From an uncultured Gammaproteobacteria bacterium (GTDB lineage: Bacteria > Patescibacteriota > Microgenomatia > JALYQM01), in NCBI GenBank assembly GCA_964403585.1, contig CAYOFQ010000001.1, forward strand, positions 896,680-960,679: a DNA stretch of 64,000 bases. The letters run 5' to 3'. Below, in pieces: positions 7,615 to 52,494 of the stretch; position 1 is the stretch's first letter, and every line of letters begins with the position of its first letter. The notes below the pieces were generated by a model. It was not told the DNA's origin. It ran no database searches and saw only the letters and a program-made list of their open reading frames with translations. The position numbers and the translations under genes were made by a program.

Positions 7615-7688
7615 GGCCCCGTCGTCTAGCGGCCTAGGACGCCAGGTTTTCATCCTGGAGATCAGGGGTTCGATTCCCCTCGGGGCTA
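7615..7688 (+). tRNA. tRNA-Glu (anticodon UUC)
   Basis: GGCCCCGTCGTCTAGCGGCCTAGGACGCCAGGTTTTCATCCTGGAGATCAGGGGTTCGATTCCCCTCGGGGCTA; anticodon stem CCAGG/CCTGG, loop TTTTCAT (TTC); T-arm GGTTCGATTCC; CCA not encoded. Confidence 0.8.
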
Positions 7689-8142
7689 CAAAAAGCCTTA
7701 AACCTGTAATTCCGGATATACACTACACGTAGAATTGTGATTCTTTTTAGCTATCTTCAGGGGATCTTTACCCCAGTGTTTCATAACACTAATACTATTA
7801 GCGACACTAACCTGCACTGCACCGTGCGTACTTTTAACAGTCTCCAGGCACTGACCTAATGAATCAAGTTCTGCCTTTCGCTCAGTACATTTTAGGTGTG
7901 CATCGGGAGGGTCTGCTGCATATTTTTCAGCAAGTTCGCGTGTGTTTTTCGCACTCTCAACATACTATAGCTAAGGAAACCAAAAAACTTAAAACGACTA
8001 AAAAGATAATGAGAAAGTGCCAGTTACGAAATGAATCCAAACAGGAGTGAGTATGTGTTTTACGTCTTGCCATAATCACCATAAATATAGAATATGAGCA
8101 CTCCATCTAGCAACTTTATAAAAGTCTGCTTATACTAAAAGT

Positions 8143-16889: not shown

Positions 16890-17999
16890 TTAACTTTGTA
16901 TTCTTCGGACATTCGTCCGCTGTGAAAGAATTCCCGTCAATCCCGCACCAAGCAAACAGGCATTTGACGTAAACTCATGCGTGGCAAACGCCGGGATAGT
17001 TAATCCGGTATAATGCGCCATGATCTGCTGCACACGCTCGACATACCCCGGAACACTAAATATTCCACCATGCAAAGCAATTTGAGAAGCCCCTTCAAAG
17101 CGAATCTGTTCGGCATTAGCTACACCCAAGGCAGTAAAAGCAACAATATGAGCTGAAAGATCATATAACTGCCGGGCGATTGGGTGCCCTTTTTGAAATT
17201 CTTTACTAATATCTAATCCGGTCAAATTTGCCTCAGTACTAAACTCACCCTGTACCGCTGGAGCAAGCTCAGCCCATAACGCTTCGACACCTGCTTTACT
17301 TGAACCAACCCGTTCTAAGCACGTAAACTCCTGTCCAAAAACCCCACACGCTTGTTGCATATCAAACAAATTAAGTGCAGGGGAAAGAGCAATATGACCA
17401 CCTTCTGCAGCAATCATCTCACCGCGGCGGTAAGCAGCCGTTCCAAGCCCGCTGCCGCAAATAATATAGACAATATTCTCAACCTGCGGATTATTGGTTT
17501 GCGCGTATAAAACCGCTGCAGTAAGTCCGGCAATCGCGTCGTTACGCACAAAGGGAGTAATACTACTCAAATCCCCACCAAGGCGGTCCTGCACATCGGC
17601 AACAAACTGTCGAACATTCGGCCCATCTTGCGGACGTGTTCCATCCAAAGGACCGGCATAGGAGATCGCGACAGGAACACCCATAGCCTCAGCTTTATGT
17701 CCAACCTCAAGCAATAAATCTAGATAACCGGCGCCATGTGTACTGTTGAATTTTTCGGGCGGAGCCACAAATTCCAGATGATCACCTTCGGCGACAAGAT
17801 GGGCCCAGGAAAACTTGTCGCCTCCCATATCGACTGCGATGACCTCCCGGCCTTCCCGACGACGAAGAGCCTCTACCAATTTAAGCTGAAGTTTGCCGGC
17901 TTCCCGGGCATGCAAGTTTTTTTCCGTGAAACGGTTCCACTGGTCATACGGAATGCGCATAATATGTTCAGGAAATAATGATGAAGACTCAACAAGCAT
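16890..17999 (-). CDS. BadF/BadG/BcrA/BcrD-type ATPase (N-acetylglucosamine-kinase-like)
   Basis: 369 aa; ASKHA-fold motifs VIAVDMGGDKFSW (phosphate 1) and IICGSGLGTAAY. Confidence 0.5.
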   Translation of the reverse strand: MLVESSSLFPEHIMRIPYDQWNRFTEKNLHAREAGKLQLKLVEALRRREGREVIAVDMGGDKFSWAHLVAEGDHLEFVAPPEKFNSTHGAGYLDLLLEVGHKAEAMGVPVAISYAGPLDGTRPQDGPNVRQFVADVQDRLGGDLSSITPFVRNDAIAGLTAAVLYAQTNNPQVENIVYIICGSGLGTAAYRRGEMIAAEGGHIALSPALNLFDMQQACGVFGQEFTCLERVGSSKAGVEALWAELAPAVQGEFSTEANLTGLDISKEFQKGHPIARQLYDLSAHIVAFTALGVANAEQIRFEGASQIALHGGIFSVPGYVERVQQIMAHYTGLTIPAFATHEFTSNACLLGAGLTGILSQRTNVRRIQS

Positions 18000-28845: not shown

Positions 28846-29343
28846 TTACTGCAGTAATCCGAACACCACACCCATTAGCGTAAACGCAACTGTATGAAAA
28901 CCGGCATCAATGAGAAAAAGTTTCATTGACCGTTTTGCGAACATATAGTTCATGGCAATCGAACCACCTACCCAAACTAAACCAACCGAAAGAGAAGCCA
29001 GAACATCGCCAACAAGCGGCAAGGCATCTCCTAAAAACATTCCCAGCACGTAGGATGAGACCAAAGAAATAACAAACATGGCCATAAGTAATTTAGCCAA
29101 TCCGGTTTTTTCTCCATGCATATCGGCATTAATTTCGTTCATCCAGGCTTTGCTAAACAAAGGTCCATACCATAGCGCACCTAAAATAAAACGAACCACA
29201 GTTGCAAGAAGTACCGCCAGTATGTTGACAGTCATAAAGATCACCTCATAAAAAGCATAATACAGTAATTTTAACATGATAGAGCCAAAATTATGCAATA
29301 CCAGCGCTGCCAAACATCCGCCGGTTACACCAGCGAATAACAC
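28846..29343 (-). CDS. DUF1761-like membrane protein
   Basis: 165 aa, 4 TM; N-terminal pattern LGALWYGPLFSKAWM characteristic of DUF1761. Confidence 0.5.
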   Translation of the reverse strand: MLFAGVTGGCLAALVLHNFGSIMLKLLYYAFYEVIFMTVNILAVLLATVVRFILGALWYGPLFSKAWMNEINADMHGEKTGLAKLLMAMFVISLVSSYVLGMFLGDALPLVGDVLASLSVGLVWVGGSIAMNYMFAKRSMKLFLIDAGFHTVAFTLMGVVFGLLQ

Positions 29344-29788
29344 CGTCCGCCAGGAACTCGAACGGTTAGCTTATCAGTCAACGACGCCGATCGTCGGAAT
29401 CATACTGGAAGGCTACCGCAAGATCGCCTGGCAGCGAAACCTCATTAATCTCGTCGGCTACGTTTTCGCCGGCCTCGTGGTGATCTCGATCGAACTGGAG
29501 GCCCAGCTGCCAAACCCGGCCGAGGCCATCCTCATTCTGGTCACCTTCGCGCTATATATCCTGGCGGCGTGGAAGTCGACTCATAAACGCGTCACCCGAG
29601 GGCTGTTTCGTCGCACACTCAAAGTCGGGACGCTGGTCGCGCTCCCTGTTGTCGTGATGACAAGCGAACTGCTGGGTGTGAACATAACCACGGTCACGCA
29701 GCCGGTTTTGATCGACGCCGTCAGCCGCGGTCTTGCCTGGTGGGCAGTGATGCTCGCGATCACGTTCATCGTGGTCGACCAGGCCTAG
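29276..29788 (+). CDS. hypothetical 4-TM membrane protein within GC-rich patch (start uncertain, possibly fragment)
   Basis: ORF body from ~29343 is ~58-60% GC versus ~42% background. The only ATG (29276) lies in the AT-rich part and overlaps DUF1761 head-to-head; no in-frame start occurs inside the GC-rich portion. Confidence 0.35.
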   Translation: MIEPKLCNTSAAKHPPVTPANNTVRQELERLAYQSTTPIVGIILEGYRKIAWQRNLINLVGYVFAGLVVISIELEAQLPNPAEAILILVTFALYILAAWKSTHKRVTRGLFRRTLKVGTLVALPVVVMTSELLGVNITTVTQPVLIDAVSRGLAWWAVMLAITFIVVDQA

Positions 29789-29973
29789 ACAACATGAGGT
29801 ATAGACAGCAGCAGCTTGTAAAACGGATGGACGACACCAAGTCGGGAAGATTAGCCGCTCTGCGACTAAGCCTTTCTTACTTACCGTCGCTCACCCGCGC
29901 TGTTGCTCTCTATACCTCATCCTCAAAAGATATTCTTGATTTATATAAAACCTGTAGCTACGCTAGAGTAGCT

Positions 29974-43891: not shown

Positions 43892-44752
43892 TACTAGAAA
43901 TAAAAATGACCTATAGTATTGGAATTTAGGTTAGAAAATGATAACTATGCTGGCTTTTATAGGTATTCCCTTAATTGAAAGGGAGAGCACTTATTATGGC
44001 CGGGTTCAAAAAAGAGCTCGAAATGTTCATTAACAACGAGTAAGCAAACACGTAATATCTCCCTCGCAGTACTATTTTCAAGTAGAGGAGCTTAAATCTA
44101 TGAACTTTCGTAGTTTTAAATTCGTCTATTTGAAAAACAAGTTATAGAACAGAAGGGAGCTCAATGTGAGGACGCTAATCCTAGGCCAACCAGCGTTCGT
44201 AGACGGAGTTCTTAGTGGCAAACTAACCCCAGATAAGCTAAATAACTCGATCATGTATTTTCGGTTGGACGTACCACGCAGGAATGACTCGGGTACTAGC
44301 AGCAGGGATCGACGGTTCATGGTGGATCATGATCAACCAACTACATAGTGCTACTATCGAAGGACGAATCCGCTGGCGAGCTGAACATGAAATGGCATGC
44401 TTCGATCACCTGGTCGGGCTACTGCAAACCCATGGCTACACGCTAGTCATTCCTCCCGACATTTCCTACTACACTCACCGAACTGCCGCTCAACTCGTTC
44501 GCGAGCAGCTTGGCAACCACTTCGAGGTTGTTGTCATTGAGTAGCTCACCCTACGGAACTACACACCGAGTACGCAAGAGAGAGCAGGAGATATTACGTA
44601 AAAAACGTGAATACCTTAAGGCTGTTGAAGCTTTAATGTGTTTATTATTTTTTGTAATAGTTCCTTACCTGTCTTGCTTACTCGTTGTGTAGTTAATTTC
44701 AGTAAATCACCCCCAACTTGACGCTACCCTCCAAACCTTCTAATCTATACCT

Positions 44753-50389: not shown

Positions 50390-50704
50390 TTAGGAATTGG
50401 TGACTTCTGACATCTCAAGCATCTCTTTGATTGTGCGAGGTGCTGTAGCTTTTTCAGTCTTTTCTTCCTTCTTATTCTTTTTCTTGGCATTAGCTTGTGC
50501 AGCTGCAGCGGCATTCTTAGCCATGTTGAATTTATCAACACGTCCGAGAGTGTCAATTAATCGCTTCACACCGGTGTATACCGGGTGACAGGAAGAACAG
50601 ATTTCAACGCGGATTTCCTGCTTGGTTGAACCTGTATTAAAGGTACTGCCACAGGAACAGATTACTTTAGCGTCAGTATAATAGGTAGGATGTATAGCTT
50701 GCAT
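50390..50704 (-). CDS. rpmE: 50S ribosomal protein L31 with Ala/Lys-rich C-terminal extension
   Basis: From internal ATG ([27 protein letters not shown]...[11 protein letters not shown]...GRVDKFN); the ORF-track N-terminal 37 aa are unlikely. ~35-aa tail [24 protein letters not shown] beyond the canonical L31 end. Confidence 0.7.
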
Positions 50705-51037
50705 ACGAAAAACCCTTCTTTTTGAAACTAATCGATAATACCATAAAACCGGTTGAAAGTAAACGGCAAGGAAAAAGCTCCTTTTGTGATTGGGAGCAAC
50801 TGTTTTCGCCTTCATTTCGGCTCATCAGGTAGCGATTCGTTAACGCTACGAACAGCAGAGGACAATAGCACAACTCAAAAACAACAACTTCAAAAACAAC
50901 AAGCGGCAAACCGCAGGGCTTCATGGGATGGTATCCATGTCGATTTTACAAGTTTCACCTCTAGCCGGTAGAGCGCAAGCTCAATTGGCGCGTCCTGCGC
51001 TCCACCGACAGTAAGCTTCAAATTCAGCGCGAAGTGG

Positions 51038-51286
51038 CTAGCTGTTAAACAGCTGCCACACGAGGAGGTACTCCAGGAACGTTCCAGCGGCCATCACCCC
51101 GCAGAGAGCAACGGACTGAACTTCGCTCCAGCCGAACTTGTATCCCCATATCTGATGACCCAGTTGGCCGATGCCAACAGGAGCGGCTGCCGACGCGGCA
51201 ATCATGAGGATCGCGTCACCCAGCGACAGCCCGGCCAGCATGGCCAAAACAACTGCTGTCGCGAATAGAAATCCGGCCATCAGCAA
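51038..51286 (-). CDS. hypothetical small membrane protein in GC-rich patch
   Basis: 82 aa, 2-3 TM helices; local GC ~60%. Confidence 0.4.
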   Translation of the reverse strand: MLMAGFLFATAVVLAMLAGLSLGDAILMIAASAAAPVGIGQLGHQIWGYKFGWSEVQSVALCGVMAAGTFLEYLLVWQLFNS

Positions 51287-51340
51287 TTAGAACCACCAGG
51301 GGCGGGTAGTGTGCGTTTTCATGGTTATTCCTTTATGTGC

Positions 51341-51652
51341 TTATTGGAGGGGAATCAGGTGTTGACCGAGTACCAACTCAGCCAACAGTATCGCTTCGAC
51401 AATCAGCACACCCAGAAGGTAGCACAACTGCGTGCCCCACTGGCCGAGTGAAAGGAACCGGTTCAAAACCACCGCCAATACGTTGACGATGACTGCTCCG
51501 GCGATCAGGCCGACGATAAGTTGACCCAGCGAACGGTTGCCGTACAGCCCCAGGTAGAGCCCGACGATAACTGCGATAAGCTCTAGTAGCTCCTGCCAGT
51601 AAACCAGGAGGGAGAGCCCCAGTGCTCGCCCCAGAAGCCTGAGGAAATTCAT
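51341..51652 (-). CDS. hypothetical small membrane protein in GC-rich patch (start uncertain)
   Basis: ~103 aa from MNFLRLLG (ORF track begins at TTG 51811); 3-4 TM helices; ~55-60% GC. Confidence 0.4.
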   Translation of the reverse strand: MNFLRLLGRALGLSLLVYWQELLELIAVIVGLYLGLYGNRSLGQLIVGLIAGAVIVNVLAVVLNRFLSLGQWGTQLCYLLGVLIVEAILLAELVLGQHLIPLQ

Positions 51653-51678
51653 GCGCTTCTCCTTGTTAGAGTGGTTCC

Positions 51679-51732
51679 GTTTGGCTACCAACAAAATGAG
51701 CCTAATAAGGTTCACTTTATAGGTAGCCAAAC
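51679..51732. promoter_or_regulatory. 11-bp perfect inverted repeat (GTTTGGCTACC-N32-GGTAGCCAAAC) upstream of GC-rich small membrane genes
   Basis: Seen directly; located in the 5' region of the minus-strand gene; candidate operator or insertion boundary. Confidence 0.3.
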
Positions 51733-51876
51733 CAGGGGATTTGAGCTTGAGGTATAACTTGTCTATTGTCACTCTGTTAAAGAACAGGTCATCCAGCGTG
51801 AGCTGAATCAAGCCACAAATAAGGCTTTATAAGTATACCATATTTTAGTACAAAAATAAATACTATAGGTCAAAAA

Positions 51877-52494
51877 TTAGAACTGTGGAGTGGGAGTACC
51901 GGTAACAGAACCGGAACCAGTTGTACTTGCAGCCGAAGGAGCAGGGGAGGCCGACGGATCCGGTTTCAAAGCATTCGGATCTTTATTCAAGTCTTCCAAT
52001 ACATAGCTGCTCAACAGGGTAACTGTATCCGAACCCTCTTTGGTCGCGTAATTATAGTCACCGTCAAGTGTTGTTCCGCCAACTTTGATTACTTCAGTGG
52101 AATTGTCTTTTTTCTTAACTGTTACGGTCAGCACAGGAGAATCTAACTTGGTATTAGCCTGAGCTAATTCGGATGCCTTATACTTTCGCATTCCGGTTAA
52201 CGAGTTTATACTCCCTAAATAGGTACTAACTTTTGTATCGTCAACAGGAATTGCCGGCTGTGCTAATTTCCATTTCTGGTTACCAAGACTCTGCAAAGTA
52301 GCCGAATAGGAAGCCGATTTCCATGAAATTTCCGTAATATCATCAAGTTTATACGAAGTTAGGGGTACAGTCTCGGTTGTATCGGTAGGAGTGTCCGGTT
52401 CAGGAGCTTTCTTATCTTTTTGATATACCCAAAAATAACTGAATAGGGCAACAAAAACCAGAACTAACAAAAATGTATTACGAAAGCGTGACAT
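51877..52494 (-). CDS. DUF4340-like protein (Gld-type ABC cassette accessory)
   Basis: 205 aa; N-terminal TM; last gene of the ABC ATPase / ABC-2 permease / GldG-like cassette, the position usually held by DUF4340. Confidence 0.45.
   Translation of the reverse strand: MSRFRNTFLLVLVFVALFSYFWVYQKDKKAPEPDTPTDTTETVPLTSYKLDDITEISWKSASYSATLQSLGNQKWKLAQPAIPVDDTKVSTYLGSINSLTGMRKYKASELAQANTKLDSPVLTVTVKKKDNSTEVIKVGGTTLDGDYNYATKEGSDTVTLLSSYVLEDLNKDPNALKPDPSASPAPSAASTTGSGSVTGTPTPQF

Follow-up and report, generated by a model that had tools for sequence, protein, structure and literature searches.

A GC-rich patch upstream of rpmE as the probable cargo of a moron-like cassette with conserved RNA-processing ends

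Introduction

The sequence described here is a stretch of 64,000 nucleotides (the window) from contig CAYOFQ010000001.1 of GenBank assembly GCA_964403585.1, deposited as an uncultured Gammaproteobacteria bacterium and placed by GTDB in Patescibacteriota (Microgenomatia, JALYQM01). The element in question is a GC-rich patch on the minus strand between a gene encoding a DUF4340 protein and rpmE, the gene for ribosomal protein L31. This patch is probably the cargo of a moron-like cassette of about 1.06 kb, in which variable cargo is held between conserved RNA-processing ends that would decouple the cassette from the rpmE-prfA transcript.

Three well-known genetic units share properties with this locus. 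Phage morons are extra transcription units of deviant composition that are inserted between phage genes. Integron gene cassettes are promoterless units of about 1 kb with variable, often orphan cargo and a structured, strand-specific bounding site. RiboJ is a synthetic ribozyme insulator derived from the type III hammerhead of sTRSV, and its cleavage standardises the 5′ end of the downstream mRNA and decouples this mRNA from the sequence upstream.

The fourth comparison is with the hammerhead ribozymes of bacterial genomes, which often lie beside small non-conserved open reading frames (ORFs) and have been connected with phages and integrated elements (PMC6155905, PMC3088659). They have been reported between the genes of polycistronic phage transcripts (PMC3088659), and their role in bacteria is an open question (PMC6155905). 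No report of hammerheads in Patescibacteria or DPANN was found in a literature search.

The locus resembles the bacterial genomic hammerheads (PMC3088659, PMC6155905) in its canonical core, in its intergenic position beside small orphan ORFs of foreign composition and in its presumed role, the processing of a polycistronic or read-through transcript. It is unlike them in that its predicted ribozyme is a single type III hammerhead, not clustered, within a solitary 1-kb insert in a housekeeping spacer with no prophage, and in that the ribozyme is coupled to a conserved, structured 5′ leader and to a 3′ hairpin, both of which are seen again around other cargo. As with a moron, the cassette is a small extra gene unit of deviant composition with a terminator-like hairpin, and it is absent from relatives; unlike a moron, it is located in the chromosome, with the DUF4340 gene on one side and rpmE on the other, lacks an evident promoter of its own, and carries a ribozyme and conserved ends. 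The likeness to an integron gene cassette extends to all the properties given above, but there is no integrase next to the insert and no array, and structures occur at both ends, the 3′ one being a hammerhead, which is an RNA feature. The 3′ hairpin lacks the GTTRRRY/RYYYAAC ends of an attC site as judged by eye, no formal attC scan having been made. In common with RiboJ, a type III hammerhead is situated between an upstream transcript and a downstream gene, although this one is natural and its insulating effect is presumed. When compared with non-autonomous elements of the IS200/IS605 type (PATE), the cassette has strand-specific hairpins near both ends, and the candidate direct repeats differ between its two copies.

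Insertion site and extent of the cassette

Relatives of the host were located via PrfA, which is encoded two genes downstream of the block. Six independent relatives were obtained, with PrfA proteins 85, 81, 74, 73, 72 and 71% identical to that of the window, and all six share with the window the gene order ABC ATPase, ABC2 permease, GldG-like protein, DUF4340 protein, L31, PrfA, trypsin/PDZ protein and L9. The nearest named PrfA relatives of the host belong to the Patescibacteria group and Curtissbacteria (53–59% identity), and a search of genome contigs with the GldG-like protein returned only proteins of 24–30% identity and no close relative. The spacer between the DUF4340 gene and rpmE measures 56–142 bp in the six relatives and 1172 bp in the window. 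The initial annotation had proposed that related genomes be checked for the block, and it is absent from every one of the six rather than kept in all relatives. The similarity to the spacer of the relatives ends near position 51828 (score 32 for relative L011 versus 18.5 ± 2.6 for shuffles) and picks up again at 50764, which is the -35 box of rpmE, GTTTACTTT. This lineage has thus gained an insertion of no more than 1063 bp, which occupies the short spacer between the DUF4340 gene, part of an ABC-transporter operon, and rpmE-prfA and is co-oriented with both. The block had been delimited at 50950–51811; the insert is real, and the acquired segment is larger, at approximately 50770–51828. The insert and the adjoining host signals are as follows.

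~50770..51828, minus strand: inserted cassette of ~1.06 kb, delimited by spacer comparison, with approximate ends (roughly ±15 nt)
50735..50763, minus strand: host rpmE promoter, TTTACT-17-TATTAT with TG, just 3′ of the insert and outside the cassette, kept in L009, L011 and L012
50704, minus strand: ATG start codon of rpmE (MQAIHPTYY...), assigned by comparison with relatives

No promoter-like site is present inside the insert; the only such sites are at 51889–51862, in ancestral DNA just upstream, and at rpmE. A duplication of the rpmE promoter at the left junction, suggested by a MAFFT alignment, was rejected on a local alignment that scored like shuffles (p = 0.6). Integration at a tRNA or tmRNA gene was also rejected, as none is near the block and the only tRNAs of the window are at 272–346 and 7615–7689.

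A chimeric join of DNA from a high-GC organism during assembly would account for the sharp change in composition, and ORF1 of the insert is seen only in one 976-bp Logan contig besides the source. That contig, L001, is independent and matches the window with 100% identity over ORF2, ORF1, the hammerhead and the start of rpmE. The leader and tail of the insert, which are low in GC, are homologous to a cassette in a related genome, and the element therefore belongs to the gene pool of this lineage. An assembly artefact is accordingly considered extremely unlikely.

Base composition and codon usage

The GC content of the window is 44.2%, rising to 53.8% in the flagged block (50950–51811) and 56.3% in its core (50950–51660). 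This core is the GC maximum among all 700-bp windows in the 64 kb, 3.9 standard deviations over the mean. The discontinuity claimed in the initial annotation is thus real, and its level of about 58–60% is somewhat overstated, since values of 58–66% are reached only in sub-windows of 50–200 nt and in ORF1 (58.6%).

The GC contents at the first, second and third codon positions are 0.63, 0.43 and 0.70 for ORF1 and 0.68, 0.30 and 0.69 for ORF2. The third-position value (GC3) of the host averages 0.45 ± 0.07 over 54 long ORFs of the window. Re-encoding of the two proteins with host codon usage gives an expected GC of 0.51 for ORF1 and 0.47 for ORF2 versus observed values of 0.59 (0.593) and 0.565, and an expected GC3 of 0.47–0.50 for both versus the observed 0.69–0.70. 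Roughly half of the GC excess comes from Ala/Gly/Leu content and half from foreign codon choice, and host membrane-protein genes exhibit no comparable GC shift. Amino acid content alone, which had been named as the explanation that would count against acquisition, does not suffice with a GC3 of 0.70 against 0.45 ± 0.07 in the host. Horizontal acquisition of the patch, as initially suspected, is well supported by codon usage together with the absence of the block from all six syntenic relatives. The GC3-rich cargo was probably taken from a higher-GC donor.

A predicted type III hammerhead ribozyme at the 3′ end

The downstream end of the insert, beyond the coordinates first flagged, contains a predicted self-cleaving RNA.

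50795..50858, minus strand: predicted type III hammerhead ribozyme

The Rfam model RF00008 (Hammerhead_3) matches positions 50857–50798 of the minus strand over its full length, with an intact core and a score of 25.6 bits. Stem III is six base pairs long and is formed by the strand CUGUU, followed by the cleavage-site C, and the strand ACAG after CGAAA. Stem I also has six base pairs (GUAGCG/CGCUAC) with a 9-nt loop and is followed by CUGAUGAG, and stem II has three (GCC/GGC) with the loop GAAAUGAA. Stems I and II are closed by loops and stem III is open, which is the type III layout. The core nucleotides C3-U4-G5-A6-N7-G8-A9 and G12-A13-A14 are present, with CUGAUGA and GAAA correctly placed; U50851 pairs with the A of GAAA-A to give the A15.1-U16.1 pair, and H17 is C50850. 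Self-cleavage is predicted between C50850 and G50849 of the minus strand, 146 nt upstream of the rpmE start codon.

A hand-written type III descriptor picks out this site alone in the window and nothing in 600 Markov-simulated windows. Scanning of metagenome contigs for CTGATGAGNNGAAATGAANNCGAAA identified eight loci, seven of which share the architecture of the window motif, with loops that are nearly identical and stems that covary freely. A covariance model, R1, was built from six of these metagenomic sequences with the window left out; compensatory changes are found in 5/6 stem I pairs and 2/3 stem II pairs of these sequences, and 100% of cells are paired. The window hammerhead scores 67.6 bits with R1 (E 2.7e-22), and the motif is absent from the DUF4340-rpmE spacers of all relatives. 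From these comparisons, we regard the window motif as truly belonging to a natural hammerhead subfamily. An Rfam E-value scan of 50600–52000 returned no other known RNA besides the hammerhead and a microRNA match on the leader hairpin described below, which was rejected as spurious.

A second copy with the same ends and different cargo

The R1 model finds a second hammerhead at L011:17936–17996 (39.3 bits), in the relative with the 81% identical PrfA. This copy is at a different locus, beside ychF, and has the same two non-coding ends as the window cassette, the match covering window positions 51829–51647 and 51019–50780. The cargo of the two copies is unrelated. In L011 it is composed of a 10-codon mini-ORF (MNDRKLLESV) starting at the conserved ATGAAT and an AT-rich ORF of 146–161 amino acids with two C-terminal hydrophobic helices, for which no family match was obtained either. 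Since the same ends enclose unrelated cargo in L011, it is the ends that define the element rather than the genes. No more copies of the cassette were found in L009, L010, L012 or L023–L026 (~130 kb of other relatives' DNA), in viral loci or in the rest of the window. The L011 copy is situated at the ychF-proximal edge of an AT-rich (26–39% GC) variable island of at least 3.5 kb (L011:16899–20438), which encodes several small orphan ORFs and at the DNA level resembles neither the window nor L009.

The conserved 5′ end comprises the following features.

51653..51828, minus strand: 5′ non-coding module (leader), homologous to L011:17041–17221
51764..51782, minus strand: conserved box CTTTAACAGAGTGACAATA, with 18/19 bases identical to CTTTAACAGAGAGACAATA of L011
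51679..51732, minus strand: long leader hairpin of 21–23 bp, with an 11-bp inverted repeat as its base
51659..51664, minus strand: Shine-Dalgarno sequence AAGGAG of ORF2, kept in L011, as is the ATGAAT start

The comparison of window 51829–51647 with L011 17041–17221 gives a Smith-Waterman score of 42 versus 21.7 ± 2.6 for shuffles (maximum 32), and the two are also matched by nhmmer. The consensus of the leader box in the two copies is CTTTAACAGAG(T/A)GACAATA, and the folding z-score of the leader is -4.9. The arms of the leader hairpin are 25 nt long and 84% complementary as DNA, and they form 21–23 pairs on the minus-strand RNA when G-U pairs are counted; these G-U pairs make the hairpin specific to the minus (sense) strand. 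A consensus fold with L011 by RNAalifold contains 21 hairpin pairs, with six compensatory double changes, three single changes that keep the pairing and no broken pair. The perfect 11-bp inverted repeat reported at the upstream edge of the block is present (GTTTGGCTACC at 51679–51689 and GGTAGCCAAAC at 51722–51732) and is located inside the conserved leader, not at the block edge. The covariation indicates that it is a conserved, strand-specific leader stem and not an element boundary.

The conserved 3′ end, in which the hammerhead is the last part, contains two further structures.

50966..51007, minus strand: 3′ module hairpin of 14–15 bp, CGGTGGAGCGCAGG...CTTGCGCTCTACCG, kept in L011
50873..50914, minus strand: weak intrinsic-terminator-like element, GCGG-UUUG-CCGC followed by a U-rich run, with CGGTTTGCCG invariant in L011

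Window 51019–50780 matches L011 17778–18008, and with the hammerhead removed this 3′ module still scores 31 versus 16.3 ± 2.3 for shuffles (p < 0.001). The consensus of its hairpin is GGTGGAG(C/U)GCA...CUUGCGCUCU(A/G)CC. The differences between the window and L011 in this hairpin are all of the wobble type (C-G to U-G, U-A to U-G, G-U to A-U) and keep the pairing on the sense strand only. The base of the terminator-like stem exhibits a compensatory change from G-C to A-U between the two copies; in a terminator scan the L011 copy passes and the window copy, with its 4-bp stem, does not. These substitution patterns indicate that the leader and 3′-tail hairpins are under structural selection.

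Conserved non-coding parts at both ends of a ~1-kb unit, a hammerhead of the type that is typical of viroid-like RNAs and retrozymes, and a folding z-score of -6.5 for the whole insert would also fit a DNA version, either copy or template, of a small RNA processed by a hammerhead (viroid-, retrozyme- or Obelisk-like); if circular, such an element would have its 3′ and 5′ modules adjoining each other. The hammerhead is single, intact and not split at the ends, there is no reverse transcriptase, and mixed composition, together with the leader hairpin, inflates the z-score of the whole insert. The coding parts fold like shuffles (z -0.5 and -1.6) with no rod-like structure, on which ground a viroid- or Obelisk-like rod was dropped as the principal interpretation. 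The candidate long-range pairing between the 5′ and 3′ parts, also considered as terminal inverted repeats (50948–50984 and 51741–51762), is located away from the insertion ends and is marginal as an RNA helix (p ~0.0125), with an RNAduplex energy that is not significant. An RNA-mediated origin is therefore regarded as very unlikely.

Short direct repeats are present near the ends of the window cassette (GTATACTTATAA at 51825–51836 and GTTTACTTTCAA at 50753–50764, 9/12 matching). L011 has a perfect direct-repeat pair, ATTTAAAT, at 17034–17041 and 17992–17999, the right copy of which directly follows hammerhead stem III. The repeats of the window and of L011 imply different 3′ ends, and therefore neither is callable as a target-site duplication.

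Other contexts of the hammerhead subfamily

Members of the subfamily were also observed outside the host lineage. Four copies (L013:364–427, L018:501–564, L019:3051–3114 and L020:551–614) lie inside archaeal-type ribosomal-protein/RNA-polymerase operons of metagenomic contigs with 28–36% GC, between a Rpb3/RpoD-like (rpo3) gene and rpl18e-rpl13-rps9. A tRNA is located immediately upstream of the hammerhead in L020, and a conserved CTGCGAGTT...GCG element occurs just downstream of the ribozyme at these archaeal-type loci. This placement suggests that the ribozyme may process ribosomal-protein operon transcripts in DPANN-like archaea. A further copy is encoded by L015, a primase-bearing phage-like contig. 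Related hammerheads identified with R1 are intergenic in three IMG/VR viral contigs and one human-gut contig: L027:6365–6424 (46 bits), L029:5688–5747 (46 bits), L028:9826–9887 (36 bits) and L017:6729–6789 (33 bits). The L017 site is type I by Rfam, and clusters of small hydrophobic ORFs are found a few kb from the hammerhead in L027 and L029. These other contexts are consistent with a function of the subfamily in transcript processing.

The viral contexts bear on a different origin for the insert. It could be the decayed remnant of a larger phage- or island-derived insertion, a moron left after deletion, whose ends would be ordinary phage intergenic expression signals shared with L011 through the same phage family. 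The intergenic hammerheads of viral contigs agree with this, as do the reported association of bacterial hammerheads with prophages (PMC3088659), the fact that the L011 copy lies at one edge of a variable island where further small orphan ORFs occur, and the absence of a mobility gene from the cassette. Set against these points, the window insert is clean, with conserved housekeeping synteny on both sides and no other phage remnant, and it exhibits no DNA similarity to 50,697 phage records or to plasmids. IMG/VR yielded neither the leader box nor the 3′ hairpin, and the cargo is enclosed exactly by the conserved ends, beginning at the ATGAAT start. A phage remnant is possible, if somewhat unlikely.

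Cargo genes and proteins

The cargo of the window cassette is composed of two genes and an intervening mini-ORF.

51341..51652, minus strand: ORF2, 103 amino acids, Leu-rich (29%), 3–4 predicted transmembrane helices, orphan, with an ATG start and AAGGAG upstream
51287..51322, minus strand: mini-ORF of 11 codons (MKTHTTRPWWF) between the cargo genes, with its own AAAGGA ribosome-binding site
51038..51286, minus strand: ORF1, 82 amino acids, Ala/Leu/Gly-rich, 2–3 predicted transmembrane helices, orphan, with a TTG start and GGTGG six nt upstream

The two small hydrophobic minus-strand ORFs first noted (82 and ~103 amino acids) are both present as described, with hydropathy (GRAVY) values of 1.18 for ORF1 and 1.32 for ORF2. 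ORF2, the mini-ORF and ORF1 share one reading frame and are divided by two TAA stops. The possibility that ORF1 and ORF2 are paralogues or one gene broken by stops was rejected, as they have no mutual similarity (BLASTP E 1.4) and a shared frame is a one-in-three chance. An N-terminal extension of ORF2 to 156 amino acids was likewise rejected; it crosses the conserved non-coding leader and hairpin, and the strong Shine-Dalgarno sequence, the ATG at 51652 and the NCBI call favour 103 amino acids.

Neither protein has a significant match in Pfam, NCBIfam, PHROGs or PADLOC, and the best PHROG holin matches have E-values of 0.52 and 0.67. In a word-indexed search of 5.8 billion protein clusters, ORF1 and ORF2 matched only themselves, and an exhaustive phmmer search of ORF2 against 1.84 billion representatives returned itself and one low-complexity match (E 4e-5). 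A single-sequence AF2 prediction of ORF2 contains three long helices (pLDDT 73.5, pTM 0.34) and is too weak for a meaningful fold search. ORF1 and ORF2 are best described as orphan small polytopic membrane proteins, as far as their predicted topology goes.

The initial annotation had likened the pair to two-component small transporters or to holin-like proteins. The first comparison fails, with no SMR/EmrE profile match in Pfam or NCBIfam and two proteins that are not paralogous. The second finds no holin family match and no lysis gene nearby, as the neighbours are the DUF4340 gene and rpmE, and the insert holds only ORF1 and ORF2, with no endolysin or spanin. A plain acquired island, of which such a transporter or holin/antiholin-like pair would be the point and the RNA structures incidental, could nevertheless be argued from the adjacency of two small polytopic membrane proteins with good ribosome-binding sites, from their clear foreign codon usage and from the faint holin PHROG matches (E 0.5–0.7). 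The lack of homologues and of any significant match to SMR, holin or defence models argues against it, and ends kept under apparent structural selection while the cargo is replaced in L011 are the opposite of incidental. This explanation is considered quite unlikely.

Proposed function of the cassette

The interpretation that we favour, and consider probable overall, is that of a cassette built from three parts. The 5′ leader would consist of the 19-nt box, the 21–23-bp hairpin, AAGGAG and ATGAAT; the cargo would be exchangeable; and the 3′ tail would consist of the 14-bp hairpin, the weak terminator and the type III hammerhead. With no recognisable promoter of its own, the cassette would be expressed from the host promoter-like sites left just upstream. 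The leader hairpin directly 5′ of the Shine-Dalgarno sequence could serve as a site of RNase III-type processing or of stabilisation and so free the 5′ end of the cassette RNA, and the cargo proteins would act in the membrane. Most transcripts would end at the weak terminator, and read-through RNA would be cut by the hammerhead 146 nt 5′ of the rpmE start. The cut would separate the cassette mRNA from the rpmE-prfA mRNA and leave the downstream RNA with a compact, structured 5′-OH end, and in this manner the hammerhead would, as we infer, decouple the two transcripts. Engineered hammerhead insulators such as RiboJ act in the same way. The proposal also agrees with the position reported for bacterial hammerheads, between genes of polycistronic phage transcripts (PMC3088659).

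Several observations weigh against this proposal. Because the terminator is upstream of the hammerhead, the ribozyme would matter only for read-through RNA, and the Rfam score of 25.6 is below the gathering score of 48.5, which is attributed to the 9-nt loop I and the short stem II. The termini are imprecise, no terminal repeat or target duplication is consistent between the window and L011 copies, and no integrase, transposase or reverse transcriptase is found near the insert. Only two copies were found, and a "family" therefore rests on n = 2. L001 spans 51660–50685 only, which leaves the left junction without independent assembly support. ORF1 is missing from the annotation of the NCBI record, and with no homologues of either ORF there is no evolutionary test of their translation.

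Three things appear to be new: a discrete unit of 1 kb in which structured ends are conserved and cargo is swapped, the clean way in which this unit is inserted in the spacer of a housekeeping operon, and its lineage. Tentatively, the window and L011 copies might represent a class, not described before, of small mobile cassettes that are non-autonomous and occur in bacteria with an ultra-small or streamlined make-up. Such cassettes would be promoterless, with a structured leader, a hammerhead-ended tail and swapped cargo, and would be able to settle in essential operons by processing themselves out of the host transcript; we regard this extension as unlikely. The occurrence of the same hammerhead subfamily in DPANN-like ribosomal-protein operons hints at a shared, possibly cross-domain pool of RNA-processing modules.

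The locus is a compact testable case, with one predicted ribozyme at the downstream edge of a delimited insert, directly 5′ of the essential rpmE-prfA, and with six empty sites and a second copy for comparison. If the ends are a portable kit for expression and self-insulation, they would explain how foreign genes land in the tightly packed operons of small genomes without polar damage, and they would offer engineers RNA parts of natural origin, namely a leader hairpin and a ribozyme insulator. Otherwise, the locus is still a record of recent gene gain in a lineage about which little is known.

Other features of the window

A second GC-rich patch is present at 29281–29920 (56.4% GC), between a DUF1761 gene and a BNR/LysM gene. 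It contains a hydrophobic orphan ORF of 170 amino acids (29276–29788, plus strand, GC3 0.72) and a 22-nt inverted repeat, 91% complementary with an 83-nt spacer, at 29794–29920. This patch has no similarity to the first and no hammerhead or end-module match, and the first patch has no similarity to the rest of the window.

A mechanically called L31 ORF of 141 amino acids (50390–50815, minus strand) is over-extended. The L31 protein of the window has a Lys/Glu-rich C-terminal extension past the Pfam L31 domain. A sub-threshold Rfam match to the plant microRNA precursor MIR8562 at 44557–44694 on the plus strand (29 bits, E 0.25) probably marks just a long intergenic hairpin near 44.6 kb.

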